From Somniosus microcephalus (lineage: Eukaryota): a DNA stretch of 64,000 nt. The position numbers and the translations under genes are program-made. How positions within the stretch are numbered: position 1 is the stretch's first letter; each line of letters begins with the position of its first letter. A model generated the notes under the pieces. The model saw only the letters and a list, made by a program, of their open reading frames with translations, ran no database searches and had not been told where the DNA came from. Below, in pieces: positions 27,165 to 59,200 of this stretch. Location: NCBI GenBank assembly GCA_052327205.1, contig CM126212.1:95728001-95792000 (forward strand), in the 5' to 3' direction.

Positions 27165-27845
27165 ATCTTTAGCTCAGTGGTAACAGTCCTGCCTCTGAGT
27201 CAGAAGGTGCTGAGTTCAAACCCCACTCCAGGCAGACCTGAGGGAGTGCTGCACTGGCACAGGTGCCATCTTTCGGCTGAGATGTAAAACTGAGTTTTAC
27301 AAAAGTACTTTACTCATGACGAGCAACTCATGCTAGTTCTTGTTGCAATAGTCTGTTTTTTTAATAATATACACCCATATGTATTAAAATGTATATTCTG
27401 CTAGATTATTTTGTGTACGTTAAAGGCAAATTATATCTGCCCTCTCATGTGGGCGTAAAAGCTCCTATGACTATTTAAGAGCAGGGGAGATCTCCCCGGT
27501 GTCCTGGTCAATAATTACCCTCAACCAACATCACTAAAACATTATCTGGTTATTATCACATTGCCATGTTTCCTACATTACAACAGCGACTACACTTCAA
27601 AAGCACATCTCTAACTTTTTCCAATTCTGACAAAAGCTCATCGAGCTGAAACGTGAACTCTGTTTCTCTCTGCACAGATGCTACCTGACCTGTTAAGTAT
27701 TTCCAGCATTTTCTGTTTTTATTGCAGATTTCCAGCATCCGCAGTATTTTGCTTTTGCTTCAAAAGTAGTTAATTGGCTGCAAAGCGCTTTGGGACATCA
27801 TGAGGTTGTGAAAGGCGCTATAGAAATGCAAGTTCTTTCTTTCTA
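27165..27845 (+). mobile_element. SacSINE1-like DeuSINE, degraded and interrupted
   Basis: Head, Deu-domain pieces and the tail ...aaaggcgctatagaaatgcaagttctttctttc are collinear with 33931-34385. Interrupted by an AT-rich stretch (~27295-27435) and by the 27604-27757 insert. Confidence 0.75.
27604..27757 (+). mobile_element. Penelope-type terminal-repeat fragment with a degenerate hammerhead core
   Basis: Flanked by the 9-bp duplication CTTCAAAAG (27595-27603 and 27758-27766). Homologous to 31897-32025. Core reads CTGACAA-A-AGCT-catcg-AGCT-GAAA-CGTG. Confidence 0.65.
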
Positions 27846-28834: not shown

Positions 28835-29305
28835 CTCTGCTGCCCATGTCCTAACTCACACCAAGTCCCATTCTCCTATCACCCCCTGTGCTCACTGACC
28901 TACATTGGCTTCCGGTCAGGCAATACTCAAATTTAAAATTCTCATCCTTTCAAATCCCTCCATGGCTTTGCCCCTCCCTATCTCTGTCACCTCCTCCAGC
29001 CCCACAACCCTCCCCTACCCCGAGATCTCTGCGCTCCTCTAATTCTGGCCTCTTGAGCATCCCTGATTTTAAGTGCTCCACCGTTGCCGAGGCTCAAAGC
29101 TCGGGAATTCCCTCCCTAAACCTCTCTGTCTCTCCTCCTTTAAGACATTCCTTAAAACCTAGCTCTTTGACCAAGCTTTTGGTCACCTGTCTCCTTACGT
29201 GGCTCGGTGTCGAATTTTGTTTGATAACGCTCCTGTGACGCGTGTTGGGACGTTTTACTATGTTAAAGGCGCTGTATAAATACAGGTTGTTGCTGTTGTT
29301 GTTGC
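28835..29305 (+). mobile_element. L2-clade LINE 3' fragment
   Basis: LTDLHWLPV motif typical of the L2 ORF2 C-terminus. Tail aaaggcgctgtataaatacagg(ttg)n resembles the DeuSINE tail. Confidence 0.75.
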
Positions 29306-31039
29306 GTTGGCTCCTTGCTCAGACGTGGTTATACCAGTGTTATGTGACTTACCCCGCCCAAATGACCATCTGTGAGCCCCGAGAGTAAGTAGGGGCAGGC
29401 TTTAACCTATTTATTTTTAAAGAAGAGCACTGTTATTTGAACCTTACATCTATCTTAAAAGGACATTTCAAAATCACCAGAGGCACTGAGGGACAAAGTC
29501 AAATGTAGAAACTTATTATGCCAAGAGTTAAATAGGATCTTTACACAATAGCAGTCGTAATCTCAACTACTGTTCCTAAATATTTGCAAGACTTTTTGTC
29601 CTACCGCAGTCCTGGCTTACTTTAACATTGATAATTAACTATCAGAATAGGTCACTTAACCAAACCCCTGTGCTGCATCACTTCAAGAAATCTCACTGTC
29701 CACCAGTGTATCTGTTACTGAGCACGTTTCTTACTCTGATATCACACTGTAAAACATACTACCAATGGTTCAAAAATCTACAACGTGATTTTGATTTAAA
29801 TTATGATTAATTTTTTTGAGAATAATTGAGATTTTGACTTCCCTCAAAGAATTGGAACTCGGGGTTGAAATAATTTGGGAGGGCAAAATATCAGTTGCAC
29901 CTTTTCTGTGAATGATAGTTTTTCACTAGCAAGGAGTGAACTTTAAACATATACTGCACCACTGACGTCTGTTTGTGTGGAATGTTTGATTGCTGTTTAA
30001 TCTTTTAACGTTTACATAATTAACAAGCTGTTTTAACAGCAGTGCAGAACTTCATGATGGTGTGCGCCAAAGCAACACTTGTAGAAATAATGGATAAGAA
30101 ACTAAGGAGATTACTTGTTTTTCAATCTGCCCTAAAGCAGGACAGAAGAGCTCATTCCGAGACAGTGAGCCACTTTCGCTGCCTTTGACCTTTTGGTCCG
30201 AATAAATCTTCCACCTTTAGCAGTGCTGCATCAGGTGTGAAAGAACCTGTATCCCTCAATTGGTGCTGGCAAGAGAACTGTTTTAATTCACCAGTTACAA
30301 TTCTAAATGGAAAGCCTATTAATTCCCTGCTGCGTACCAATTCTGCCAGCCTGTTTGGGGTTCTGTTGTAAATATATCTGAGCTGAACAAACTATAACTG
30401 CTAGTCCCTCTGCATTCTAATCCCAGTTCACATGGGATTGTGATGACATGTAACAGGTGCAATTGTTACTTCAGCTTATCTGCAAACAGCTAGGACCAGC
30501 TGGCTAATGGTATTGTTCTAGGTCAATGATTTTCTCCCTGCCTCCCCTCACCCTATTTGAAAATGATTTTTCTCCTCTCTTTCGGACCCCCACCCTCCAC
30601 TCCATTATCTGACTTGATGCATACAACAATCTGCTTCCTGAGAGACCGGCCTTTGCTTAGGGTTTTTTTTTTTTTTTTAAATAAGCACCCCTTCCGTGTA
30701 GGGAAATGCCTTGCCTCTTCTTGGCATCTTCCGCTAATGGAGAGGCCATGGGAGGAGTTGGACCTCACCATGTAGGAGAACGTGTGGCAAACCTGCATCC
30801 TGCTGCTCCACGATGCATTGTGTAGACACGACCCTGACACTACTTTGCCTTGCTTTTTATTCAGTTGAATTGAGCAATTTGTTTTTTTATTCCTGTGCTG
30901 TTTGCATTTTAGTCAGTCATCGCGCTGCACACCGACACAGTGGGACCAAGTTCCAGTTTCGCCAAAGTGTGAGACTAATCACACACTCTCAGCTCCTGTT
31001 GATCTTAAAGAGGGCATTGTGAAGATGAACTTCAATTTC

Positions 31040-31355
31040 ATAGAACATAAAAGGTTAAGGGGAGATTTAATAGAGGCATTCAAAATTATGAGGGATTTTG
31101 ATGGAGTCAATAAGGAGAAACTGTTTCCACTGGCAGGAGGGTCGGTAACCAGAGGAGACAGATTTAAGATAATTGGCAAAAGAACCAGAGGGGAGATGAG
31201 GAGAATTTTTTTATGCAGCAAGTTGTTATGATCTGGAATGCGCTGCCTGAAAGGGTGGCAGATTCAATAGTAGCAGGGGAGTGGGACTAATTGAACACCT
31301 CTTTCAAAGAGCCGGCACAGGCACGATGAGCCGAATGGCCTCCTTGGCTGTATGA
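31040..31355 (+). mobile_element. CR1 LINE 3' fragment
   Basis: RLRGDLIEAFKIM...LFPLAGGSVTRG is the CR1 ORF2 C-terminus; 3'UTR contains gccgaatggcctcc. Confidence 0.85.
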
Positions 31356-31863
31356 AAGTGTGATCTCAAATGATTAAAGCCACTTTTAAGCATATTTAAG
31401 AAAACAAATCCCTTTTCAGTAATTATTGATTTTGACACACAAAAATGCTTTAATTTCTTTAATCTATCATGTTAGGAAACCAGCTTGTAAACCACAGAAC
31501 AAACATAATTGTCTGAAAAATCTTGTTTTTAATCACAATTGACTCGTGGAAATGCAAAGAGAAATATTTTTACATCTCACCTTTGGTTTTAAAACTGTGC
31601 ATAGTGTAAAAGAAAACTATTGTACGATATGTCCTCCTCCTACCAAACTACAGAAATTAAATCTTAAAAATGCCACACAAGACCTATTGCCTTTAAAACT
31701 CAAAGTTTCTCTAAACATGGGGGGGGGGGGATCTACTCTGTGTAATGAAGTTACAAGATCACGTGCACAATGCCCATTCACAATTCGCTTTTCCCCCCTC
31801 ACCCTCTCCCTCCCTGATACAATAATCAGGACAGAAACTTCCAGCACCTTGCAAATAAATAGG

Positions 31864-32210
31864 TGAACAAAATGTAGCATCTGTGGAGCGAGAAACCAGT
31901 TCTGATGAAAGGTCATCAACCTGAAGCGTTAACTCGGTTTCTCTCCCACAGATGTTGCCTGACCTGCTGAGTGTTTCCAGCATTTTCTGTTTTAATCTTG
32001 GATTTCCAACATCCGCAGTATTTTGCCTATGAACAAAATGTAGCATCTGTGGAGAGAGAAACCAGTTCTGATGAAAGGTCATCAACCTGAAACGTTAACT
32101 CTGTTTCTCTCCCCACAGATGTTGCCTGACCTGCTGAGTGTTTCCAGCATTTTCTGTTTTAATCTCGGATTTCCAACATCCGCAGTATTTTGCTTATGAA
32201 CAAAATGTAG
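31864..32210 (+). mobile_element. Tandem dimer (166 + 167 bp) of a Penelope-type terminal-repeat fragment, each unit with a minimal hammerhead ribozyme core
   Basis: TGAACAAAATGTAG occurs three times (31864, 32030, 32197). Cores read CTGATGA-A-AGGT-catca-ACCT-GAA(G/A)-CGTT at 31902-31930 and 32068-32096. Confidence 0.7.
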
Positions 32211-32414
32211 ATGGGCTACAGCAAGTAGGTTTATTTGGAATTAAAATTGCAAAGAAATTGCAACTGTAAAGGGAAAACTAGAACTCCTTTGCAACTTTAC
32301 TTTCAGCAACATGTGCAGCACGGGTGCAGCAGCACTACTGGTCTCAGACTGGTCCGTGTTCAAATGTACAGCAGTTGGGTGGACCAGAGTTATACTGCCA
32401 CTCAGCTATGTTAA

Positions 32415-32800
32415 AATTTAAAAATTCTCATCCTTGTTTTCAAATCCATCCATAGCCACGCATGAGGATGGCCCTATCTCTGTATTATCTCCTCCAGCCC
32501 TGAAACCCTCCCAGGTCTCTGCACTTCTCCAATTCTGGCCTCTTGCGCATCCCTGATTTTAATCGCTCCACCATTGGTGGCCGTGCCTTCAGCTGCTGAG
32601 GCCCTAAGCTCTGGAATTCCCTCCCTAAACCTCTCCACCTCGCTCTCCTACTTTAAGACGCTGCTTAAAACCTACCTCTTTGACTAAGCTTTTGGTCACC
32701 TGTCCAAATATCTCATGTGGCTCGGTGTCAATTTTGTTTTATAACGCTGCTGTGAAGCGCCTTGGGATGTTTCACTACGTTAAAGGTTGTTGTTGTGTTT
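32415..32800 (+). mobile_element. L2-clade LINE 3' fragment
   Basis: Collinear with 28930-29300 (aaaattctcatcctt...aattctggcctcttg...aagcttttggtcacctgtc...gttgttgttg). Confidence 0.75.
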
Positions 32801-33930
32801 TTTTCAGAGCAGTAGAGAAGCTGGTTCAGTTGCTCAGGACATGCACAAACTGCAGACACTGGCATGATGATGCACAGCAGGGATGATGGGTCAGATCATG
32901 CATTATGAAATGTCGGGTGCAAATCTGTTTGAAAAGAACGCGATGGGTGCCACTTTTTGAGCAAAAGAACTGGACTCATTGGTGGGGGGAGAAACAAACC
33001 AAAGATTGCTGTGGACACTCCTAAGCTCCAGTGAGCTGGAGTTATACTGCCAACTGTGGCCTGGAACATGGGTCCAACTGAAGGGGGTTTCTCTCCTCCT
33101 ACTGCAGGGTCAGACTGCGATCTGGCTGGAAAACTGCACCATCACTTTTGCATATCTGTAAAGTCGACACTCCTCTGCATCAATGCATAAGTAGCAGCGT
33201 AGTTGCATCGTAATATAACTGCTGTACCTCGATCTTCTCTTAGAAAAGACGAAAGGATTTAGAAATCAAAAATACATTTTTCCCCTCCATCCCTCCTCAC
33301 AGCTCAGTCTATTTTTTTCAAGAAGCCACTAAATGGTTAATATGCAAGTACTTTCAAAAATCTTCCAGTACATTTAAACGTTGCACTTTACTTTTTGTGG
33401 TTTCAGTTCGATGCTATTATCAATTATGCAAAAATAAAAGGTGTGTTCACTGGGGAATTTGAATGTACCGTAGGTAGTTTGAAATAATTGGAGAGCTATT
33501 CCATTGCTTTTCACAAACAGTTTCAAATGAATAAAGAACAGTAGTGTTTGAGGCAGTGAAATGCAGCATTCTAACACAGCACTGTAAATGGGGTATCGTT
33601 AAATGCTGTGGCCAGCACTGTGTATCGAGGCTAGGGCCAGGTCTTCTTTCCGCAGTGCTGCATGTGTCTCAAATTTACATTTATTTTGCGCTGAAGCAAT
33701 TAGGTAAATGAAACGCTCTCCATTTTCGACAGCACCAAGCACTCCTGGGTCAAGTACAGCATGGGTTAGAAACTGAGCAAATCTCTCAAACCACTGCATC
33801 AACAGTGTGCCTGAATCTTAACTTCAGAAGAGCACAGCAACATTAACAGCTCCATTCCCACATCAGGGCTGTCCAGGTGTGTCTTTCCCCCACCCCTCGG
33901 ATTTTCCCTCCCTCATGCTGGGAGACACAA

Positions 33931-34385
33931 GGTGTTAGCCTTGGCTCAGTGGGTAGCTCGCTCACCTGAGTTAGAAGGTCGTGGGTTCAAGTCCCACTCC
34001 AGGTACTTTGAGCATATAATCTATCCTGACACTCCCAGTGCCAGTACTGAGGGAGTGCTGCACTGTTAAAGGTGTCCTCTTTCAGGTGAGATGTTAAACC
34101 GAGGCTCCGTCTACCCTCTCAGGTGGACGTAAAAGATCCCATGGCTTTATTTTGAAGAGGAGCAGGGGCTCCTGGCCAATATTTGTCCCTCAACCAACAC
34201 CTAAAAACACAGATTATTTGGTTATCACATTGCTGTTTGTGGGAGCTTGCTGTGTGAAAATTGGCTGCCGCATTTCCTACATTACAACAGTGACTACACT
34301 TCAAAAATACTTCATTGGTTATAAAGCACTTTGGGATGCCCTGAGGTCATGAAAGACGCTATATAAATGCAAGTTCTTTCTTTTC
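33931..34385 (+). mobile_element. SacSINE1-like DeuSINE, full length
   Basis: tRNA-like head (tggctcagtgg...ggttcaagtcc), Deu domain (gagatgttaaaccgagg...aaagatcccatggc...cctggccaa) and tail atataaatgcaagttctttc. Confidence 0.85.
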
Positions 34386-35176
34386 TATAATTTCTGCCTT
34401 CCTGTTAATACGGTCAGACTGGAACTAGAACTGAAAAATCTGCGTCCACCCTGTAACGCTGGGTGTGCGTGTACTAATGTTCAGCGCCACCACAATAACC
34501 CCAGCAGGCTGCATTTATATTTTAAAAACACTGATTAAATGTGTAATCTCGAACACTAGCGCAGCTTGGCACTCAGAATTCTCTATCAGCTTTACATTAA
34601 GCAAGGAAAATATTGTACCTTCGCATTATTTTTAACCCAAGGACATATTGTCAAGCCTCGTTATTATAGAAACTACAAAGTGATTTTTTTTTAATGTTCC
34701 ATGAACAAAACCTCTTGTTCTGTCACTACCTCTAAGATCTGTGCTGTTTCAACATTTCGGAATCACTGATGGCAGTGGCCGGAGAGGTTTCCAATTCAGC
34801 ACTCACCAGCTTGCGATTTTCGAGAAAGTCCCAGTTAGTGTCACCTGTTTTTTTTATGGATGCTCAATCCAGCGCAGGCAGCTATTCCCAGGAGAGAGTT
34901 GGTCCCCTTAACATTCCAGGATATTGGTGATGGAGTGGGAATCCCCATTTTTTTTTCCAAGCTGTCAAATTCAACCAGAAATGGTGGTTGGGTGGGGGCG
35001 GGGAGGGGGCACTTCTTAAATCGGCCAGCCACCCAACTCCTTGCAGGCATCACCGAGAGAGGCAGGACTTGCAGGATGGCATCATCCGCCAGTTTCAATT
35101 CCGTTGCCCCCAGCACTAAGTACTCTTGAATGATGTTAATAATTTTGCTGACCTACAGTAGCTCCTGGTCTGGCAA

Positions 35177-35869: not shown

Positions 35870-38800
35870 AACATAAGAAGTAGGAGCAGGAGTAGGCTAT
35901 TCAGCCCCTCAAGCCTGCTCCGCCATTCAATAAGATCATGGCTGATCTTCGACCTCATCTCCACTTTCCTGCACTATCCCCATAGCCCTCGATTCCCTTA
36001 ATATCCAAAAATCTATCGATCTCTGTCTTGAATATACTCAACGACTGAGCCTCCACAGCCCTCAGGGTTAGAGAATTCCAAAGATTCACCACCCTCTGAA
36101 TGAAGAAATTTCTCATCACAGTCCTAAATGGCTGACCCCTTATTCTGAGACTGTGACCCCTGGTTCTAGATTCCCCAGCCAGGGGAAACATCCTCCCAGC
36201 ATCTACCCTATCAAACCCTGTAAGAATTTTGTATGTTTCAATGAGATCTCTTCTCATTCTTCTAAACTCCAGAGAATATAGGCCTAGTCTACTCAATCTC
36301 TCCTCATGGGACAATCCCCCCAAATATCCCAGAAATCAGCCTGGTGAACCTTGATTGCACTCCCACTATGGCAAGTATATCCTTCCTTAGGTAAGAAGAT
36401 CAAAACTATACACAATACTCCAGGTGTGATCTCACCAGGGCCCTATATAATTGCAGTAAGACGTCTTTACTCTTATACTCAAATCCTCTTGTAATAAAGG
36501 CCAACATACCATTTGCTTTCCTAAATGCTTGCTGTACCTGCATATTAACTTTCAGTGATTCGTGTACAAGGACACCCAGGTCCTTCTGAACGCCAACATT
36601 TCCCAATCTCCCACCATTTAAAAAATACTCTGCTTTTCTATTTCTCCACATTATATTCCATTTGCCATGTTCTTGCTTGTCTATATCCCCTTGAAGCCTC
36701 TTTGCATCCTCTTCACAACTTACATTCCCACCCAACTTTGTATCATCAGCAAACTTGGATATATTACATTTAGTCCCCTCATCCAAATCATTGATATAGA
36801 TTGTGAATAGCTGAGCCCCAAGCACTGATCCTTGTGGTACCCCACTAGATACAGCCTGCCAACCCGAAAATGGCCCGTTTATTCCTACTCTGTTAACCAA
36901 TCCTCAATCCATGCTAGTACATTATCCCCAATCCCATGAACCCTAATTTTGTTTAACAACCTCTTGTGTGGCACCTCAGCGAATGCTTTCTGAAAATCCA
37001 AATACACCACGTCCACTGGTCCCCCTTATCTATTCTGCTAGTTTCAGTCCCATTAATTTCTCCAGTACTTTTTTTTTTTTTTTTTAAACCTACTACTAAT
37101 TTCTTTCAGTTCCTCATTCTCGTTAGACCCTTGGTTCTCCACTATTTCCGTGAAGGTTTTTGCGTCTTCTTCTGTGAAGACAGACACAAAGTATTTGTTT
37201 AATTTCTCTGCCATTTCCTTATTCCCCCATTATAATATTTCCTGTCTCAGCCTGTAAGGGACTCACATTTACTTTTGCTAATCTTTTCCTTTTTACATAC
37301 CTATAGAAGCTTTTACAGTCTGTTTTTATGTCTCTCGCTAGTTTACTCTCATTCTATTTTCCCTTTCATCATCAATTTCTTGGTCCTCCTTTACTGAATT
37401 CTAAAATCCTCCCAATCCTCAGGCTTACTACTCTTTTTGGCAACATTATAAGCCTCTTCTTTTGATCTAATGCTATCTTTAACTTCTCTTGTTAGCCACA
37501 GTTGGACCACTTTTCCTGTGGGGTTTTTGTGCCTTAAAGGAATGTATATTTGGTGTAAATGATGTATTCATTCTTTAAATGCTAGCCAATGCTTGTCTAA
37601 ATCGCCCCTCATGCCTACGTAGTTTACTTTGTTTAGATTTAAAACCCTAGTTTCAGATTTAACCAAATCACTATCAAACTCAATATAAAATCCTATCATA
37701 TTATGGTCCCTCTTCCCGAAAGGCCCCTTTACTACAAGGTTATTAATTAACCCTTTCTCGTTGCACAATACTAGATCTAAAATAGCCTGTTCCCTAGCTG
37801 GTCCCTCAACATACTGATCTAGAAAACTATCCTGCATACATTCCATGAATGTCCTCCACACTATCACTGCACATTTGATTTGCCCAGTCTTTATGTAGAT
37901 TAAAGTCCCCCATGATTATTGTATTACCCTTGTTACATGCACCTCTAATTTCCTGATTTATACTCTGCCCTACATTACAACTACTGTTTGGGGGGGTCTA
38001 TAAACAACTCCCACCAATGTTTTCTGCCCTTTGCTGTTTCTTAGCTCCACCCAAACTGATTCTACTTCTTGATTTTCAGAGCTAAGATCCTTTCTCTCTA
38101 CTGTCTTTATCCCATCCTTTATTACCAAGGCTCCCCCTCCTCCTGTTCCATTTTGCCTATCTCTTCTGAAAGTTAAGTATCCTGGAATATTTAGTTCCCA
38201 ATTTTGGTCACATTGCAATCACGTCTCCGTAATGGCTATTAGATCAAACCTATTAATTTCAATCTGCGCTATTAATTTATCTATTTTGTTGCTAATGCTT
38301 TACGCTTTCCCATATAGTGCCTTTAGCTTTGACTTTTTTCTATTTTTCCCTGATATCACCTTAGTCACTGATGCCTTATTACCTTTGTTACTCTCTGTCC
38401 CTTCCTGACCCACTCAGCTTATTTTTACCCAAAACTCTACTCTGCTCTAGAGCCTTGACATTTCTCTCGCTGCTTTTAAATTTACTCTTTCCTGAATCCT
38501 TCCCCCCGCCCCCCCTCCACCACTTCATTAGTTTAAAGCCCTGTCCACTGCCCTAGTTATTCAGTTCGCCAGGACACTGGTTCCAGCCCGATTTAAGTGG
38601 AGCCCGTCCCAACGGAACAGCTCCCTCTTTCCCCAGTACTGGTGCCAGTGCCCCATGAACTGAAACCCCTTCCTCCCACACCACACTTTCAGCCACGCAT
38701 TTAAACCTCTAATCGGTTTGTCCCTTTGCCAATTTGTGCGTGGCTCAGGTAACAATCCAGAGATTATTACCTTTGAGGTTTTGCTTTTTAATTTGGATCC

Positions 38801-43325: not shown

Positions 43326-43928
43326 TCACGCTCGGATGGAGTTGTCCTTGGGGGCGAGATGATGACGGCGGCGGCGGAGGGGGCGCAAGGGTGGGCCGGA
43401 GTCGTTGGTGGGTTGGTCCTGACTGGCAGGAGGCGGTGGCGGGGGGAGGTTGGGTGCCGCTGGCGGGTGCTCCTTGGTCATGCCCAGGATGATGGAGGTG
43501 AGGGACTTGATGTAGTTCTTGGCCAGGGTGAGGGTCTCGATCTTGGAGAGCTTCCTGTCCGCCTCCACGTGGGGGATGACCTCCCGCAGCGCCTGGAAGG
43601 CGTTGTTGAGGTTGTGCATGCGCTGGCGCTCACGCTCGTTGCTCTCAATCCGGCGCAGGTTGCGCTCCCGTGCGTTGGGCGCGTGCCCCCTGCGCCTGCT
43701 GCTCATGCCCACGCCCCCAATACAGCCGCTCCCGCTGCTGCCACTGGCCACACTCACCGTGCAGCCACCGTACCTGCGCACCCCGCGGGGCCGCGCCCGG
43801 CCCCTCACCTGGCAGCAGCTATCGCGCTGGCTGCAGGTGGCCTCGGCCCCCAGGTGCAGCTCCATCTCCGGGGAGTCACCTCCTCCTCCGCCGCCACCGC
43901 GGAATCTGCCTTTTATCTTAGATTTCAT
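43326..43928 (-). CDS. bhlha15: Class A bHLH transcription factor 15 (MIST1), 200 aa, single coding exon
   Basis: bHLH domain [53 protein letters not shown] is nearly identical to recalled MIST1. The start MKSK resembles mammalian MKTK. CpG-rich, with a splice acceptor (ttttgtag) at 44018-44019 and LMTK2 upstream on the same strand. Confidence 0.93.
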
Positions 43929-43975
43929 CCTCTCAGCCCCTGCTTCTTTACGCCGCTTCTCCGCCGAAGATGCAT
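43925..43975 (-). promoter_or_regulatory. Upstream ORF (16 aa, [16 protein letters not shown]) whose TGA overlaps the bhlha15 ATG
   Basis: Read directly on the minus strand: gcgATGCATCTT...AGAGGATGAAATCT. It lies inside the predicted exon, which starts at 44017. Confidence 0.6.
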
Positions 43976-44568
43976 CGCCCGTCAGCCGGTGGCAACCGTC
44001 CAAGGCGTCGGAAACGGCTACAAAACAAAAATACAAAACAAATGCAAATGGGTGCCGAACTACAAAGCAAAAAGTTAGGGACAGAAAAGTTAAACATTTG
44101 AAGTTTAAATCACTATTAACCTGGCCTCTCCATGCGATATAGAAAAAAGATAGCATTTAGGAAATCCAGGTTATTTGCAGGATCACCAACCCCAAGACAC
44201 TGAGGAATGCAACTTAAAATAGATTAAAATATCTCTTTGCTCGATACTTGCATTAAGCCCCACTGCGAAGACCTTATTCTCTAATTTCAAGATAGATTTT
44301 TATAATGAGTACCCAAAACCAAATATGCACCTTCTATCTTCATTTAAATCTAATTTACACGCGTTTAAAATATAATTCTATAATTCTTCCCCGTAACGAT
44401 TCAACAGTTGAGAGATGGACCAATCCAGAGTTTTAAAGGTTGAACCGATTTTACCGACAGGTGCAGAAACAGGTCAATTGCAACAACTTGATCATCGGCA
44501 ACACCGGGGACTAAATGCATCTTTAGCACAGTGTAGATCTTTGAAAACAATCATTGTTTTTAACCTAC

Positions 44569-45094: not shown

Positions 45095-45429
45095 CCATAG
45101 AATGGTTATGGCACAACAGGAGGTGGCCATTCGGTCCGTTGAGCCCATGCCGGCTCTCTGCAAGAGCACTTCAGCTAGTCCCACTCCCCCCTATCCCTGC
45201 AAATTTTGTTTCTTCAGGTACTTATCCAATTCCCTTCTGAAAGCCATGATCGAGTCTGCCTCCACCACCCTTTCAGGCAGTGTATTTCAGATCTTAACCA
45301 CTCTCTGCATAAAAAAGGTTTTCCTCAGGTGGCCTTTGGTTCTGCTGCTAATCACCTTAAATCTGTGTCCTCTGGTTCTCAACCCTTCCACCAATGGGAA
45401 CAGTTTCTCTCGATCTACTTTGTCCAGAC
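45095..45429 (-). mobile_element. 3' end of a minus-strand CR1 (continues at 47862)
   Basis: Tail aaccatagaatggtt and CR1 3'UTR. Stops at tgtccagac and resumes at ctcatgattttgaacacc. Confidence 0.85.
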
Positions 45430-47863
45430 ATAGAGTGTATTAGGGACGGGTTCCTTGAGCAGTATGTAACTGAACCAACCAGGGGGCAGGCAATCTTAGA
45501 TCTGGTCCTGTGTAATTTGACAGGATTAATAAAAAATGTCCTAGTAAAGGATCCCCTTGGAATGAGTGACCATAATATGGTTGAATTCCAAATTCAGTTT
45601 GAGGGTGAGAGAGTTGGATCTCAAACCAGCGTACTAAGCTTAAATAAAGGAGACTATGAAGGTATGAGAGTAGAATTGACTAAAGTGGACTGGGAAAACA
45701 GATTAAAGTGTAAGACGGTACAAGAGCAGTGGTCTACATTCAAGGAGATATTTCACATCTTTCAAGATAAATATATTCCACTGAGGAAAAAGGGGAGGAA
45801 AAGAAAAGACAGCCATCCGTGGCTTAGTAAAGTAATAAAGGATAGTATTCGACTGAAAACAAGGGCATATAAATTAGCCAAATCTAGTGGGAGGATAGAA
45901 GATTGGGAAGCATTTAAAAGCCAGCAAACAATAACTAAAAGATTAATTAAGAAAGGGAAGATAGATTATGAAAGTAAACTAGCAAAAAATATAAAAACAG
46001 ATAGCAAGAGTTTCTACAGCTATATAAAAAGAAAAAGGGTGGCTAAAGTGAACGTTGGTCCCTTAGAGGATGGGACCGGGAAACTAGTGGTGGGGAACAT
46101 GGAGATGGCAAAGATGCTGAACAAATATTTTGTATCAGTCTTTACAGTAGAGGACACTAAAAATATCCCAACACTGGACAAACAGGGGGCAATGGGGGGG
46201 GGGGGGGGCGGGAGGAGCTAAACACAATTAAAATCACTAAGGAGATGGTACTCAGTAAAATAATGGGACTTAAGGCGGATAAATCCCCCGGACCTGATGG
46301 CCTACATCCTAGGGTCTTGCGAGAAGTGCGGTAGGGATTGTGGATGCATTGGTGATCATTTTCCAGAACTCCCTGGACTCAGGAAAGGTCGCCCGGCCGA
46401 TTGGAAAACTGCTAATGTAACACCCTTATTTAAGAAGGGAAGTAGACAAAAAGCTGGAAACTATAGACCAGTTAGCCTAACATCTGTGGTTGGCAAAATG
46501 TTGGAGTCCATTATTAAGGAAACAGTAACAGAGCATTTGGATAAACATAATTTAATAGGACAGAGTCAGCATGGTTTTACGAAGGGGAAGTCACGTTTGA
46601 CAAATTTGCTCGAATTCTTTGAGGATGTAACATACAGGGTGGATAAAGGGGAACCAGTGGATGTAGTGTATTTGGACTTCCAAAAGGCATTTGACAAGGT
46701 TCCACACAAAAGATTACTGATCAAGATAAAAAATCACAGGATTGGGGGTAATATACTGGCATGGGTGGAAGATTGGCTATCGAACAGAAAACAAAGAGTT
46801 GGGATAAATGGTTCGTTCTCGGGCTGGCAATCAGTAACTAGTGGTGTTCCGCAGGGGTCAGTGCTGGGACCCCAACTCTTTACAATCTATATTAACGATT
46901 TGGAGGAAGGGACCGAGTGCAACATATCCAAGTTTGCCGACGATACAAAGATGGGAGGGAAAGCAGTGAGTGAGGAGGACATAAAAAACCTGCAAAAGGA
47001 CATAGACAGGCTAAGTGAGTGGGCAGAGATTTGGCAGATGCAATATAATGTTGGAAAGTATGAGGTTATGCACTTTGGCAGAAAAAATCAAAGAGCAAGT
47101 TATTATCTAAATGGAGAGAAACTGCAAAGTGCTACAGTACAAAGGGATCTGGGGGTCCTGGTGCCTGAAACACAAAAAGTTAGTATGCAGGTGCAGCAGG
47201 TGATCAGGAAGGCCAATGGAATCTTGGCTTTTATTGCAAGGGGGATGGAGTATAAAAACAGGGAAGTCTTGCTGCAGTTATACAGGGTATTGGTGAGGCC
47301 ACACCTGGAATACTGCGTGCAGTTTTGGTTTCCATATTTAAGAAAAGATATACTTGCTCTCGAGGCGGTTCAGAGAAGGTTCACTCGGCTGATTCCAGAG
47401 ATGAGGGGGTTGACGTATGGGGAAAGGTTGAGTAGGTTGGGACTCTACTCATTGGAGTTCAGAAGAATGAGAGGCGATCTTATCAAAACATATAAGATTG
47501 TGAGGGGGCTTGATCGGGTGGATGCAGTGAGGATGTTTCCACTGATGGGTGAGATTAGAACTAGGGGGCATAATCTTAGAATAAGGGGCTGCCCTTTCAA
47601 AACTGAGATGAGGAGAAACTTCTTCACTCAGAGGGTAGTAAATCTATGGAATTTGCTACCCCAGAGAGCTGTGGAAGCTGCAACATTAAATAAATTTAAA
47701 ATGGAGATAGACATTTTCCTAGCAGATAAGGGAATTAGGGGTTACGGGGAGAGAGCAGGGAAGTGGATGTGAGTCTAGATTCAGATCAGCCATGATCCTA
47801 TTGAATGGCGGAGCAGGCCTGAGGGGCCGTATGGCCTACTCCTGCTCCTATTTCTTATGTTCT
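45430..47863 (+). mobile_element. Young 5'-truncated CR1 LINE (ORF2 from the endonuclease C-terminus through RT, plus 3'UTR)
   Basis: ORFs of 275 aa and 491 aa with [43 protein letters not shown] and FADD. Frameshifts around 46194-46395; tail ttcttatgtt. Confidence 0.95.
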
Positions 47864-50800
47864 CATGATTTTGAACACCTCTATCAAATCTTGTCTCAAC
47901 CTTCTCTGCTTTAAGGAGAACAACCCCAGCTTCTCCAGTCTATCCACGTAACTGAAGTCCTTCATCCCTGGAACCATTCTTGTAAATCTTTTCTGCACCC
48001 TCTCTTAAGGCCTTCACATCCTTCCTAAAGTGCAGTGCCCAGAATTGGACACAGTACTCCAGTTGAGGTCAAACCAGTGTTTTATAAAGGTTCATCATAA
48101 CTTCCTTGCTTTTGCATTCTATGCCTCTATTTATGAAGCCTAGGATCCCGTATGGTTTTTTAACCGCTTTCTCAACCTGCCCTGCCACCTTCAATGATTT
48201 GTGAACATATACCCAGGGATCTCTCTGTTCATGCACCCCCTTTAGAATTGTACCCTTTAGTTTATATTGCCTCTCCTCGTTCTTCCAACCAAAATGTATC
48301 ACTTCGCACTTTTCTGCATTCAATTTCATCTGCCACAAGTCTGCCCATTCCACCAGCCTGTCTATGTCCTTTTAAAGTCTATCACTATCCTCCTCACTGT
48401 TCACAATACTTCCAAGTTTTGTGTCATCTACAAATTTTGAAATAGTGCCCTGTACAGCCACATCTAAATCATTAATATATACAGTATCAAGAAAAGCACT
48501 GGTCCTAGAACCGACCCCTGGGGAACACCACTGTATACATTCATCCAGTCTGAAAAACAACCGTTCACCATTACTCTCTGTTTCCTGTCACTGAGCCAAT
48601 TTCGTATCCATGCTGCCACTGTCCCTTTTAGACCATGGGCTTCAACTTTGCTGGCAAGCCTATTATGTGGCACTTTATCAACGCCTTTTGGAAATCCATG
48701 TACACCACATCAACCGCATTGCCCTCATCAACCCTCTCTGTTACCTCATCAAAAAACTCAATCAAGTTAGTTAAACATGATTTGCCTTTAACAAATCCGT
48801 GTTGGCTTTCCTTAATTAATCCACACTTGGCCAAGTGACTGTTAATTTTATCCCTGATTATTGTTTTTAAAAGCTTCCCCACTACCGAGGTTAAACTGAC
48901 CGACCTGTAGTTGCTGGATTTATCTTTACACCTTTTCAACAAGGGTGTAACATTTGCAATTCTCCAGTCCTCTGGCACCACTCCCGTTTCTAAGGAGGAT
49001 TGGAAGATTATGGCCAGTACCTCCGCGATTTCTTCCTTCACTTCCCTCAGCATCCTAGGATGCATCCCATCTGGTCCTGGTGACTTATCCACTTTAAGTA
49101 CAGCCAGCCTTTCTAGTACTTCCTCTATCAATTCTTATCGCATCCAGTATCTCCTCTACCTCCTCCTTCACTATGTCTATGGCAGCATCTTCTTCCTTGG
49201 TGAAGACAGATGCAAAGTACACATTTAGTACCTCAGCCATACCCTCTGCCTCCATGCGTAGGTCTCCTTTTTGGTCCCTAATCGGCCCCACCCCTCCTTT
49301 TACTACTCTTTTACTATTTATATGCCTATAGAAGCCTTTTGGATTACCTTTTATGTTAGCTGCCATTCTATTCTCATACCCTCTCTTTGCCCCTGTTATT
49401 TTCTTTTTCACTTCTCTGAACTTTCTATATATAGCCTGATTCTCAGATGTATTCGCAACCTGACATCTGTCATACGCGCTCTTTTTCTGCTTCATCTTAC
49501 TCTCTATCTCTTTCGTCATCCCGGGAGCTCTGACTTTAGTTGGCCTACCTTTCCCCCTAATGAGAATGTACCTCGACTGTACCCAAACTAATTTCCTCTT
49601 TAAAGACAGCCCATTGTTCCACTACAGTTTTGCCTGCCAATCTTTGATTCCAATTTACCCGGGCCAGATCCGTTCTCATCCCATTGAAATTTATTTGCTT
49701 TCCTCCAATTAAGTATTTTTACTCTAGATTGCTCCCTGTCCTTTTCCATAGCTAATCTAAATCTTATGTTACTATGATCGCTGTTCCCTAAATGTTCCCC
49801 TACTGACACTTGCTCCACTTATCCCACCTCATTCCCCAGAACTAGATCAAGCAATGCCTCCTCCCTCATTGGGCCGGAAACATACTGATCAAGAACGTTC
49901 TCCTGAACACACTTCAGAAATTCTTCCCCCCTCTGCCCTTTACACTATTACTATCCCAGTCCATATTAGGATAGTTGAAGTCCCCCATTATCACTACTCT
50001 ATAGTTCTTGTATCTCTCTCAGTAATTTCTCTGCAAATTTGCTCCTCTATATCCTTTCCACAAGTTGGTGGTCTACAGAATACACCTACTAGTGTAATGG
50101 CACCTCTACTGTTGCTCAACTCTAACCAAATAGATTCTGTCCTTGACCCAGGACATCCTCTCCCTCTCCAGCACTGTAATATTCTCCTTAACCAATACCA
50201 CCTCCTATCTTTCCTGAACATCTGATATCCAGGAATATTTAATACCCAATCCTGCCCTTTTTTGAGCCAGGTCTCAGTCATTGCTACGACATCATATTCC
50301 CATGTGTCTATTTGCGCCTGCAGCTCACCAACCTTATTTACTATGCTTCGTGCGTTCACATACATACACTGTAAACCCATCTTAGACCATCCTGTGTTCG
50401 CTCTTAGTCTGACCCCACCTAATACCTTACTATTTATTACTTTAGTGCCATCCGTCTCTCTCAATCCTTTGTGCCCTTTATTTCCCCTTTCTAATGCTAC
50501 ATCCTGGTGCCCATCCCCCTGCCAACTTAGTTTAAACCCTCTCCAACAACACTAGCAAACCTCCCGCGAGGATATTGGTCCCGGCTCTATTGAGGTGCAA
50601 CCAGTCAGGCCTGTACAGGTCCCACATTCCCCCAGAACCGGCCCCAATGTTCCAGGAATCTGAAGCCCTCCCTCCTGTACCATCTCGCCAGCCAGGCATT
50701 CATCTGCGCTATCCTCCTCTATCTATACTCACTCGTGCGTGGCACAGGGAGTAATCCAGAGATTACTACCTTCGAGGTCCTATATTTTAATCTCTTTCCG

Positions 50801-51519: not shown

Positions 51520-51990
51520 CTCCTTCCAGCTTCCCCTTAAATGCATCTATGTTATTCCACTCAGCCACTCCCTGTGGTAGCGAGTTTCACATTCTCACCA
51601 CTCTCTGGGTAAGGAATTTTCTCCTGAATTCCTATTGGATTGATTAGTGACTATTTTATATTTATAGCCCCTAGTTTTGATCTCCCCCACAAGTGGAAAC
51701 ATCTTCATAATTTTGAAGACCTTCATCTGGTCACCCCTCAGCCTTCTCTTAGGCCCAGTCTGTTCAGTCTTTCCTGAAATACATCAATCTTTGTAAATCT
51801 TTTTTGCACCTTCTCCAGTGCCTCTATATCTGAAGATCAGGGAGTTTTTCTAGGCAATATGCCAGTGTCATTGCTGCATTAGAACAACTTGGCTGGAGAT
51901 GAGCTAGGTCTGGTAGGCAGGTCTTCAGCACTGCAACCAGGATGTTGTCAGGGCTCACAGCCTTTTATATCCAGTGCAATCAGCCACTTC
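51520..51990 (-). mobile_element. Degenerate LINE fragments (CR1 3' part and an older RT-region piece)
   Basis: tccctgtggtagcgagtttcacattctcaccactctctggg is CR1-like. Minus-strand 51860-51990 gives traces of S-P-D-N-I...LKTC. Confidence 0.5.
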
Positions 51991-51997
51991 TTCAGAC

Positions 51998-53013
51998 TTC
52001 AGACCAAGGAGCTCATCGTGGACTTCAGAAGCCACCGAGGGAACCACCGCCCCATCAGCATAGACGGGACACCAGTGGAAGTCGTCAGTTGCTTCCGATT
52101 CCTGGGACTGCAGATCTCCGATGACCTGGCCTGGAACCACAATACCGAGGCCATGCTGAAGGCGGCACACCAGCGCCTCTACCCTCTACGGTGCCTGAGG
52201 AAATGCGGCATAAGCACACAATGGCTTGAGAACTTTTACCGCGGCACCATAGAGAGCGTCCTAACAGGTGGTGTCAATGTGTGGTATGGTAACACCACTG
52301 CACAGGACAGGAAAGCCATCCAGAGGGTTGTGAGGACGGCAGAAAAGATCATCGGGTGTGCACTTCCGCCCATCGAGGAGATCTTCCAGACCAGGTGTCG
52401 GAACAAGGCCTGCTCTATCATCCAGGACCCCAATCACCCTGGGCACGAACTGTTCTCCCTCCTGCGGTCCGGCCGTCGGTGCTGCAGCATCTGAACCAGG
52501 ACCAGCAGGTTCAAGAACAGTTTCTACCCACAGGCAGTGCGCCTACTGAACTGCTAACCGCACTGCCCCATATATCATAGTCACATTCTCCCCCCCACCC
52601 TGGAATTGTATATCACATGAACCATGAGCGCACAAGAACATTCTTGATCACTGGACTGTGTGCACATAGGACTCTTGTACCTCAACCTTAACTTATAAAA
52701 CTTATATAACTTATAACTCATTTGTACATTGCACACTGTATTTTAACTTATACTTATTTATATATAAATATAGATCTTATACTACCATATACTTATCATA
52801 TTACATTACTATTACTTCCAGTGGTAATAGAGGCTTTTTGCACTATTCATCATATCCTGCAACTTGGACTATCATTGCTATACTTATTTGCTTATTGTTT
52901 CTATATTTATACTTGTTTTTACTTTTGCTTTTTCTATTTATATTGTGGGAGTGAGGAGTAAGCATTCCATTGTACCAGTTACATATAGCAATAAAATGGA
53001 TCTTGAATCTTGA
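51998..53013 (+). mobile_element. Rex1/Babar-clade LINE, 3' fragment
   Basis: TKELIVDFR...FRFLG...QRLYPLR...FYRGTIESVLT...WYGN...IQRVVRTAEKIIG...HPGHELFSLL is a Rex1/Babar C-terminus. AT-rich 3'UTR ending AATAAA...(atcttga)2. Confidence 0.8.
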
Positions 53014-56284: not shown

Positions 56285-59200
56285 GTAAATTAATTCATTT
56301 GACTTTATTTTGAATATTAAATATCCACAGTGCATTTAAATTACAAACAATTTATCGAATTACACTATGCATGGAAATCAAAGTAAAAATATTACATATC
56401 AAAATGTACATATTTCATGGACAGTGACCTGATTTCTTTTTATTAACCGTGATATGTAATCAATAATTTCATAATATATTTTTATTAAATTACAAAAGGA
56501 AACCTTGTACCTATGACTTTGTTACATCATCTCCCATTTACAGACAGAATTAAACACTTATATACATCCAGTACCATCAAACATTAAGTTACACTTCTCA
56601 AATGTGCAAGATAAAGCAATGCATTGAACAAAATAATCTGGTATTTCCATCAATGATTTAAGTAGATTCAAAATAATGTAGAACACGCTACTGTTGACAA
56701 AAAAGTATACACAACTTTAGATTTTAAATGGGATGGGGGGGGGGGCGGAGCATCTTCAATATTTACAAATAATTTTCCAAGCATGAACCCCTACAGGAAG
56801 ATATTTTTAAAGGAACATGCAGTTTTTGATCATTGAGGCACAGTCCCATGGCTCACGTTTACAGGATTAGTCGGACCATACGGTAGTACCATACTGCATC
56901 GTTTAATTGAAAACATCTTAGACTTGTGCAGTAACACAGCAAAACATTCTGCATGCTGGAACCTATATTTGCACTTTGCTTTAATATGTTAGCAACAATT
57001 TATACAGGTTATCTTCGGCACTGCATTCTGAAAACGTTCAGTACTGTTGGAGGTGGGAACTGAGTGAATATTTGTTTAAAAAACAAATCGCCCAACAGCT
57101 GTACTGTTCTGAACAACCCAACTGGAAGCGAGATTAAAATTCATGGTGCGTGGCACAGAATAAAGCTGCTGCACACATAGCAAGACAAGTAATTGCACAA
57201 GTGTTTTTTGCCAGCTGTTGTGCCGGACAAAGAGTTTGGCATATGTGGCTTGCTCGATAACCACATTGCCCTCCATCAATGGTAATGTGGTTAACAGGAT
57301 CGCATTGTTCTTACGCGCATGTTACTTTTTGCCACTTCCTTAAACATCTCACCAGGAAAGTAACCGACTGACTAGCATTGGAAAAGGTACACAGCAACGG
57401 GTACAGACTGCCAACCACAAGAACACAAAAAAATACAAGTCTGCATTATTTTACTTCGCATAAAGAAGAGATAAGTGGGTCACTCACCTCAACTGTGTCT
57501 TCATAAGGCAACAGTCTAGATTGCCACGAAATTGCTGGGTCCCCCCTGGGGCCAATAGAATTGAATTGAAAACAGGTGATTTTGCATTACCTGTCCAAGG
57601 GCCAAATGTTTTTTTCCTAAATTATTTCTACCCTTGGTTGTGAAGAGCTTGGGTTCATAAATAGAAACATGTTTCACTGGAAAATATATATTCTGTACTT
57701 TTCACAAGAAACATGAAAATACTTTTTGCTTTGTACAGTTTTCTCTAGTAACAGCTCACAGCCGTCACAAACTGCTAGATAACAAGAAAGGATTTGTGTT
57801 CACGGTTACGATATTGCACAACTACCAATACTGGTAAAGTTACCAGTTTCAAAGTTAGAATTTGGCTAGTACCTCAATAATGTAATGGAGTATTCCATCG
57901 TAACAAATATGCGTGTACAAGAGAGGTATAGTAGTTTAATCCAAGTGAGAGGTGTGCTCCACTCTATCAAATATATATAGTCAATACGCTGTTTTCTAAC
58001 ATTCGACTGAACCAACAAAGTATTTCTGACTGACATATGACAGGATGCACCTCCATTCTTAACACAAAGCTGTTGTGCTCATCCCATCGCTTGATAAACA
58101 AACGTCCATCATTTTTACAAGATCACCATGGGGGGTGGGCAGACCCCACAGTACTGGAACTACATGCAAGTACAAAATCAACATGCTATATTTTGATGTT
58201 TAAAAAAAAAATTAAATATGTAAACAGTAATGTTGGAGTGAGTTACAAACTGTAAAACACAACCCAGGGATTACAGTAATCATTTATAGATAGCAAATAT
58301 GACTTCCTTGGATAAACGCATGAGACAGGGATGATGTGCAGTGGAGCAAGAATGTTTTGGTCAGGGCACTGCAATTTTTAGAGTGTGTTTATACTGCAAT
58401 TTTAGTATCACAACATGGTTTCTGCTTTGCAGAGGCACTAACTTGCAGTATAACTCGAGTCACAGCCAGTTCCTGGCCCCTGGATGCTTTTCAAACCTAT
58501 CATTTTAAAGCTGGTTTAAATATTTAGACAGCGTGGGACACTCCCACGAGTAGCGGAGCCCTGCAAACGTGTGCAAGGAAGTTAGAGCTATCTCCTGAGC
58601 AGGGGAAGTGCACTCCCTAGGCAGTATAAACAGGATACTGCCTGACCAGAATTTATACTCCAGCAATTGTTCCCAGACTGGTAGGTGAAGAGTAACAGCA
58701 ACAATAGAGAAGAGGTGCAACATTTTCACAATTTTCAAAGGTTCTTTTAAATATTGCTTTAAAATTTAATAAACATGGGGACATTCCACGTGTAAAATGT
58801 GACATTTTTCAAATCCATTACTGCTTCACTGTCCAGAACATCTACATACCTTCAGGCACTGAACTGGAGTGCTCAGGGATTAGCTCTGAATGGTACTGAA
58901 GTCCAGTCATTAATCTATATAGATCTGACATCTTAAGGGGTCATCCATTCTCTCTTTACCCTCTGACCTGATCAAACTCAGAAGGAAAATCCTACAGATT
59001 TCAACATCCAAAATTCAGTGGTGGGATCGGGAGAACTTGTGCTAATTTTACCAGTAATTAACAGACTAAACTCCAATTCCCGTTTCCCTTGTCATCAGCA
59101 TTTTTTTAAATTTAAAAAAGCCAATTACTGATTTTGTCTTACATTGTTCGCTACTGGTTAGTGGCGGTTTTGCTCAAATACATTATTCAATACATTCTCA

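Follow-up and report, generated by a model that had tools for sequence, protein, structure and literature searches.

The 64,000-nt window analysed here (the whole stretch of DNA, in whose coordinates positions are given) contains a head-to-tail pair of minimal hammerhead ribozyme motifs, and the question is whether this pair is a working dimeric ribozyme or debris of a mobile element. TRF placed a tandem at 31864-32210 (period 167, 2.1 copies, 96% matches), and together with the landmark positions this confirmed the two 166/167-bp units, each with a minimal hammerhead, of a preliminary description of the locus; unit 1 measures 166 bp and unit 2 167 bp. We consider it very likely that the pair derives from a very abundant Penelope-like element (PLE) 3' terminal repeat (pLTR) with a covarying minimal hammerhead, that local duplication between 15-bp repeats doubled a single old insertion, already truncated and in part inverted, and that the result is probably an untranscribed, decaying relic.

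The locus consists of two successive blocks, each made of repeat, inverted piece and truncated pLTR, and ends with a third repeat. The 15-bp sequence occurs three times (starts 31863, 32029 and 32196): copy 1 (31863..31877), likely the left target-site duplication, begins with G where copies 2 and 3 have A; copy 2 (32029..32043) separates the units; and copy 3 (32196..32210) is likely the right target-site duplication. Copy 1 is followed by a small piece of the pLTR in inverted orientation (31878..31896, minus strand), which pairs with about 31937-31955 and lengthens stem I, and then by unit 1, the 5'-truncated pLTR (31896..32028, plus strand). Behind copy 2 lie the second inverted fragment (32044..32062, minus strand), a 19-bp arm pairing with 32103-32121, and unit 2, likewise a 5'-truncated pLTR (32062..32195, plus strand). 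Each unit opens with 33 nt of 15-bp repeat plus inverted piece in place of family upstream sequence. The 19-bp inverted repeat, which extends stem I (fold z about -6.5), and the direct repeat present three times had both been missed previously. The unit junction (32000-32085, spanning copy 2) was found in public contigs of two organisms (runs X1 and X3, of which X1 may be the source sample) without a single differing letter, which shows that the tandem did not arise from misassembly. Among the pieces listed for organisms C and D (eight per run, low depth) there was no unit-junction contig, which is no evidence for a single unit. Organism C carries A at 31863 (one contig, depth 6), and its left 15-mer is identical to the other two copies. 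A separate copy of the same family, 86% identical and with a degenerate core, lies at 27621..27757 on the plus strand.

Hammerhead 1 (31898..31934, plus strand, minimal type I) consists of stem I AGTT (31898-31901), CTGATGA (31902-31908), an extra A (31909), stem II AGGT/ACCT (31910-31913 / 31919-31922), GAA-G (31923-31926), CGT-T up to 31930 and AACT (31931-31934), with a predicted cut after 31930. The landmarks of hammerhead 2 (32064..32100, plus strand, minimal type I) lie 166 nt further on, with GAA-A at 32089-32092 and a predicted cut after 32096; its core is full, with the A9.1 insertion, a 4-bp stem II and a palindromic ACGT where stem III would be. A change common to both units, at 31918/32084, cuts stem II from five to four pairs. 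When compared to the minimal hammerhead core (C3 U4 G5 A6 N7 G8 A9 ... G12 A13 A14 A15.1 ... U16.1 H17), unit 2 carried every required base and agreed with every sequence criterion tried, while unit 1 departed from one, having G at 15.1 (31926); the GAAG in place of GAAA reported before is thus real. This G was seen in none of 28 relatives and in one of 84 alignment rows, which is unit 1 itself. The accompanying statement that only the unit 2 core should work was right in that the unit 1 core is impaired but too strong as worded, since mutants at 15.1/16.1 are at least 10-fold slower and not always dead, according to the available part of PMC3088659. The hammerhead profile search that had been proposed gave no help: Rfam (E up to 5) returned no hammerhead family over 29000-35000, with three weak unrelated matches. 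A loose core pattern matched 14 times in the window, 11 of them in a 31-bp satellite. With most loose matches in satellite and no Rfam match, the motif by itself is weak evidence, and its support comes from covariation in the family.

This family was identified through its neighbours. The 135-nt unit body is dispersed (861 DNA candidates in the 6.4-Gb vertebrate genome, which is probably that of a cartilaginous fish, 40 of them scored), an endonuclease protein query gave 75,731 candidates, and five of the six adjoining 10-kb blocks on the right contain a family copy. Across 28 loci the 3' end of the copies was fixed and the 5' extent variable, and two copies ran up to a GIY-YIG-type reading frame within 1.5 kb (Pfam E 0.002). 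At loci returned by the endonuclease protein alone, the repeat lay about 260-370 nt downstream on the same strand in 29 of 30 cases, or in 28 of 29 independent loci once the query's own locus was removed. All three long ORFs scanned (741-804 aa) contained RVT_1 (E 5e-6 to 7e-5) and then GIY-YIG (E 5e-4 to 5e-3), both scoring under the Pfam curated cut-offs. Because the reverse transcriptase (RT) and GIY-YIG frame lies upstream and the repeat follows it at these loci, the body is the 3' terminal repeat of a C-terminal-endonuclease PLE, and the Penelope origin suggested earlier holds. The tandem locus itself is without an ORF. A pLTR on both sides of the ORF, as expected of a full-length copy, was sought at eight long-ORF loci of 10 kb. 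Every one had the repeat downstream; L065 also had a divergent same-strand copy upstream, and the others had none or inverted ones. Inverted partner copies were present at 11 of the 28 family loci, no same-strand second copy was found within 1.5 kb at any of the 28 close family loci, and exact target duplications of 11-15 nt were seen at 7 of 28 other family loci. Two unrelated insertions, L009 and L027, share a nearly identical 14-15-nt target duplication, which suggests that both integrated at an identical position in a different repeat family, or that certain targets are preferred.

Covariation was assessed in an 84-row alignment, built from 90 candidates minus six junction-truncated and two duplicate rows, plus three window rows. 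In 82 distinct copies, 93.0% of 981 cells were paired, compared to 88.9% after shuffling and 13-45% in slid-partner controls. Three pairs switched on both sides: 3-8 (C3-G8 in 46 copies, U3-A8 in 31), the first stem I pair 2.1-1.1 (UA 49, CG 20) and the first stem II pair 10.1-11.1 (AU 33, GC 28). The both-sided change counts over the 82 rows were 31, 20 and 28, respectively, and represent a few subfamily events inherited by many copies rather than independent changes. The covarying pairs coincide with those named by the hammerhead model, and the three switches show that the family ribozyme is genuine. As judged from these copies, the family was likely selected for the hammerhead fold while mobile, which carries no inference to selection on the copy studied here. 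The full core was present in 60 of 84 rows and A at 9.1 in 83 of 84; in the 15.1-16.1 segment, AU was found in 79 and CG in 63 of 82 copies, and all 42 copies recovered through the protein had A15.1. The comparison of core and 3' flank, another check proposed beforehand, gave a mixed answer: the core was better conserved over all 84 rows (0.972 vs 0.913; p 0.027, with neither columns nor rows independent), but the difference was non-significant in 34 DNA-query rows (0.99 vs 0.98; p 0.19) and in 42 endonuclease-selected rows (0.958 vs 0.92; p 0.15). Such weak conservation of core over flank is expected since copies decay after insertion. Among the endonuclease-selected copies U3-A8 was the majority, and subfamilies in L032-L068 (e.g. 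L032, L048 and L053) showed U3-A8 cores, GUC or GUU sites and varied loop 2.

How one such terminal repeat became two can be read from the differences between the units. Both share seven departures from the majority of the 28 relatives, three of which occur in 0/28, making it likely that one old insertion was duplicated in place and that the dimer was not built by the element. Between the two unit bodies, 4 of 133 positions are different, compared to 8 or more between them and the nearest relative. Because the relatives were selected for their similarity to unit 2, their majority leans toward it; measured against that majority, the unit 1 body was off at 11 of 133 positions and the unit 2 body at 8 of 134. 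Private substitutions number five in unit 1, or six if the G that opens the left repeat is counted, and zero in unit 2 (two-sided p 0.06). The asymmetry could be a hint of selection on unit 2, and gene conversion between the units could mimic a late duplication. The insertion is old, since both of its junctions were found in organism C, whose left piece has diverged by about 5%. No orthologous site with a single unit, or with none, was directly observed.

In the proposed course of events, the family, placed downstream of the RT and GIY-YIG frame and with its hammerhead covarying, would have belonged to an active element whose RNA was presumably cut by the motif as a dimer through palindromic ACGU, as the literature on these elements implies. 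A single insertion would then have aged to about 5-6% from the family, and unequal crossover or slippage between its two 15-bp repeats would have produced the second unit and the third repeat. Unit 1 has since gained the five private substitutions observed, one of them at A15.1. If the locus is transcribed, each unit would close its own long hairpin first, leaving at most one slow cut, after 31930.

An alternative explanation is that the tandem was made at insertion, by a template jump or more-than-unit reverse transcription of Penelope RNA, and homogenised by gene conversion; it would still be a relic, and we regard this origin as unlikely. The accessible text of PMC8557442 describes partial tandems and inverted, 5'-truncated pieces as usual for PLEs, and eight other head-to-tail junctions exist in the genome, several with family upstream sequence as the spacer. 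At this locus, however, the spacer is the 15-mer that flanks both outer ends plus the repeated inversion junction, the shared changes of the two units are derived, and the other eight pairs have divergent, truncated or rearranged units. An exact search for the head-to-tail pattern gave nine matches genome-wide with nine different spacers, and this is the only one among them in which both units are full and nearly identical and the spacer recurs ahead of unit 1. Likewise, in the 40 scored of the 861 DNA candidates, a match from the 15-mer onward was seen only in the two units. Both searches yield lower bounds; given nine different spacers and no other near-identical full pair, the tandem unit is not a mobile family on present evidence.

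Duplication in place leaves the question of activity. A double hammerhead free of pseudoknots can be drawn in which the units exchange stems I and share a stem III of 4 bp; in it, cleavage after 31930, where the preliminary description had placed the cut, would be the work of the intact unit 2 core. To this extent the proposal of a dimer in cis stands, but a dimer arrangement of the element's own is unsupported, given the spacer of host target-site DNA plus an inverted fragment, the shared private mutations and the 0/28 same-strand partners. The lowest-energy fold consists of two separate hairpins (-38.6 and -39.2 kcal/mol) with the core mispaired, and the dimer lay above the free ensemble by +13.5 kcal/mol with the inverted arms and +17.6 kcal/mol without them. 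We infer from the modelled folds that the early hairpins might act as a kinetic trap against the dimer. The inverted arms were also considered as a thermodynamic block to the dimer and rejected as such, the dimer minus open monomers being 8.6 kcal/mol with arms and 8.4 kcal/mol without. Tertiary terms are absent from the energy model, which can therefore neither rule out the dimer nor demonstrate a block by the arms.

In a second alternative, plus-strand transcription of the pair would yield an RNA that cleaves itself in cis as a double hammerhead and might serve, for instance, as a read-through terminator toward the neighbouring bHLH gene or as a young non-LTR retrozyme. We find this quite unlikely. 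The nested fold with its long swapped stems I, the complete unit 2 core free of private substitutions, the presence of the tandem in two organisms and its position between two convergent gene ends are all consistent with it. However, apart from the energy gap, hairpin 1 can form before unit 2 is transcribed, and G15.1 in unit 1 is predicted to impair the second cut; as 15.1 mutants are slow, a monomer or circle would hardly be released. Published activities point the same way, with minimal PLE hammerheads having low activity even as dimers in the sections available of PMC4209133, and also in a review that cites Lunse et al. on dimer cleavage, and with cleavage in one of nine frog tandem dimers in the part of bioRxiv 2026.07.22.740005 that could be consulted.

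The surroundings bear on transcription as well. The bHLH ORF (43326..44156, minus strand; Pfam HLH E 9e-19) lies 11.1 kb from the tandem on the opposite strand, as had been described, and belongs to a gene which, judging from synteny, is probably bhlha15; its link to the tandem is proximity only. The gene on the other side has a Hyd_WA exon at C11:95,674,188 (plus strand) and its likely last coding exon at 95,683,558, and is presumably tecpr1, judging from the Hyd_WA match and the end of the protein. No plus-strand gene was found near the tandem, the nearest plus-strand coding exon found being this last one, 76 kb upstream, so that a pair likely to work in vivo is unsupported. Nor does this distance support placing the tandem inside an intron of the plus-strand neighbour gene or close to where that gene ends on its 3' side. 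A long 3' UTR or another transcript may span the tandem. The end of the plus-strand Hyd_WA gene is separated from the tandem by an array of the 31-bp satellite, which occupies 2-25405 of the window (834 copies) and extends on to about C11:95,690,215, about 63 kb in total.

A bolder version combines these elements into a retrozyme at birth: target-site-repeat recombination would have made a two-unit array, the inverted arms would clamp the swapped stems I (about 20 extra bp) into an unusually stable cis double hammerhead with a single cut after 31930, and the unit 2 core would be kept by selection as a read-through terminator toward the bHLH gene. We rate this as very improbable. That the hammerhead likeness arose by chance, or the tandem from misassembly, is scarcely credible, for the missing Rfam hammerhead, the commonness of the loose core pattern and the lack of a significant core-flank difference within either copy subset would fit it, but the both-sided switches at three core-flanking pairs, the place of the motif in a PLE terminal repeat and the junction contigs in two organisms largely refute it.

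Known systems provide close comparisons. The motifs are PLE minimal hammerheads, a known kind: the accessible parts of Cervera and de la Pena (2014, PMC4209133) describe a base inserted at 9.1, the palindromic segment and cores with U3-A8 in metazoan PLEs. As in that account, as far as it was available, the motifs studied here are type I with a 4-bp stem I, an extra base between 9 and 10.1 and a palindromic 15.2-16.2 without loop 3; the terminal repeat follows RT and GIY-YIG, copies are mostly single and truncated, some with close opposite-strand partners, and C3-G8 switches to U3-A8. In contrast to the same sections, the subfamily here has A10.1-U11.1 instead of the typical G-C and a stem II of 4-5 bp, an inverted piece derived from the insertion adds to stem I at this locus, and 166 nt separate the two motifs, compared to about 3 kb. 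The features expected of PLEs, namely 5' truncation, inverted 5' pieces and partial tandems, were all found in the family. A literature search on Penelope hammerheads in sharks gave nothing pertinent; the supplements of PMC4209133 or bioRxiv 2026.07.22.740005 may list the family.

The vertebrate non-LTR retrozymes are the closest comparison for the tandem as a whole. The available portion of bioRxiv 2026.07.22.740005 already reports tandems of PLE-derived hammerheads from various vertebrates, one cartilaginous fish among them, and proposes that PLE ends were amplified locally into tandems. Judging from that portion and from the part of Cervera and de la Pena (2020, PMC7229834) at hand, both share with our locus a tandem PLE terminal repeat, a type I hammerhead, a unit of about 170 nt and an intergenic position. 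The tandem differs from them in having just two units, one with a broken core (G15.1 in unit 1), while the 'active' class requires two complete motifs in the text seen of bioRxiv 2026.07.22.740005. It also differs in that host target DNA and an inversion form part of its unit, which was seen at a single locus, with no dispersed mobile tandem unit detected in searches that give lower bounds. The double hammerheads of newt satellite 2 and avocado sunblotch viroid (Forster et al. 1988, as reported in the accessible parts of PMC6155905 and PMC6765202) resemble the drawn structure in their two-motif fold and inter-copy stem III; in contrast to the present pair, those are expressed, multimeric and assayed RNAs.

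Overall, the tandem probably represents commonplace genomic debris and not a functional RNA switch. As one among tens of thousands of Penelope remnants it matters little as such, and it would gain greater importance only if its RNA is made and cut in vivo. The locus nevertheless offers a concrete route, duplication between target-site repeats, from a single Penelope end to a tandem, which is the first step assumed by the retrozyme-origin model. The family provides a large natural set for testing which minimal hammerheads cleave, with one lineage switching C3-G8 to U3-A8 together with both core-flanking pairs.

Further observations were made along the way. Additional head-to-tail neighbours within the family, with two hammerhead regions about 130-170 nt apart, were seen at L081, L083, L084, L086 and L089; L083 and L084, which retain most of both cores, may be better natural dimer candidates. 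A second exact match of the loose core pattern lies at 59083-59098 (minus strand), with just 5 nt between the boxes. Several decayed LINE-type reverse-transcriptase fragments, assigned to the LINE type by eye, occur at 35870-37915, 45121-49621 and 51883-52494, the longest ORF among them encoding 502 aa (46264-47772). Finally, the Hyd_WA exons at C11:95,674,188 (plus strand) and 95,949,642-96,013,539 (minus strand), about 275 kb apart, resemble one tecpr1-type gene, with a 500-N gap in L074; the split could reflect an inversion, faulty scaffolding or partial duplication.
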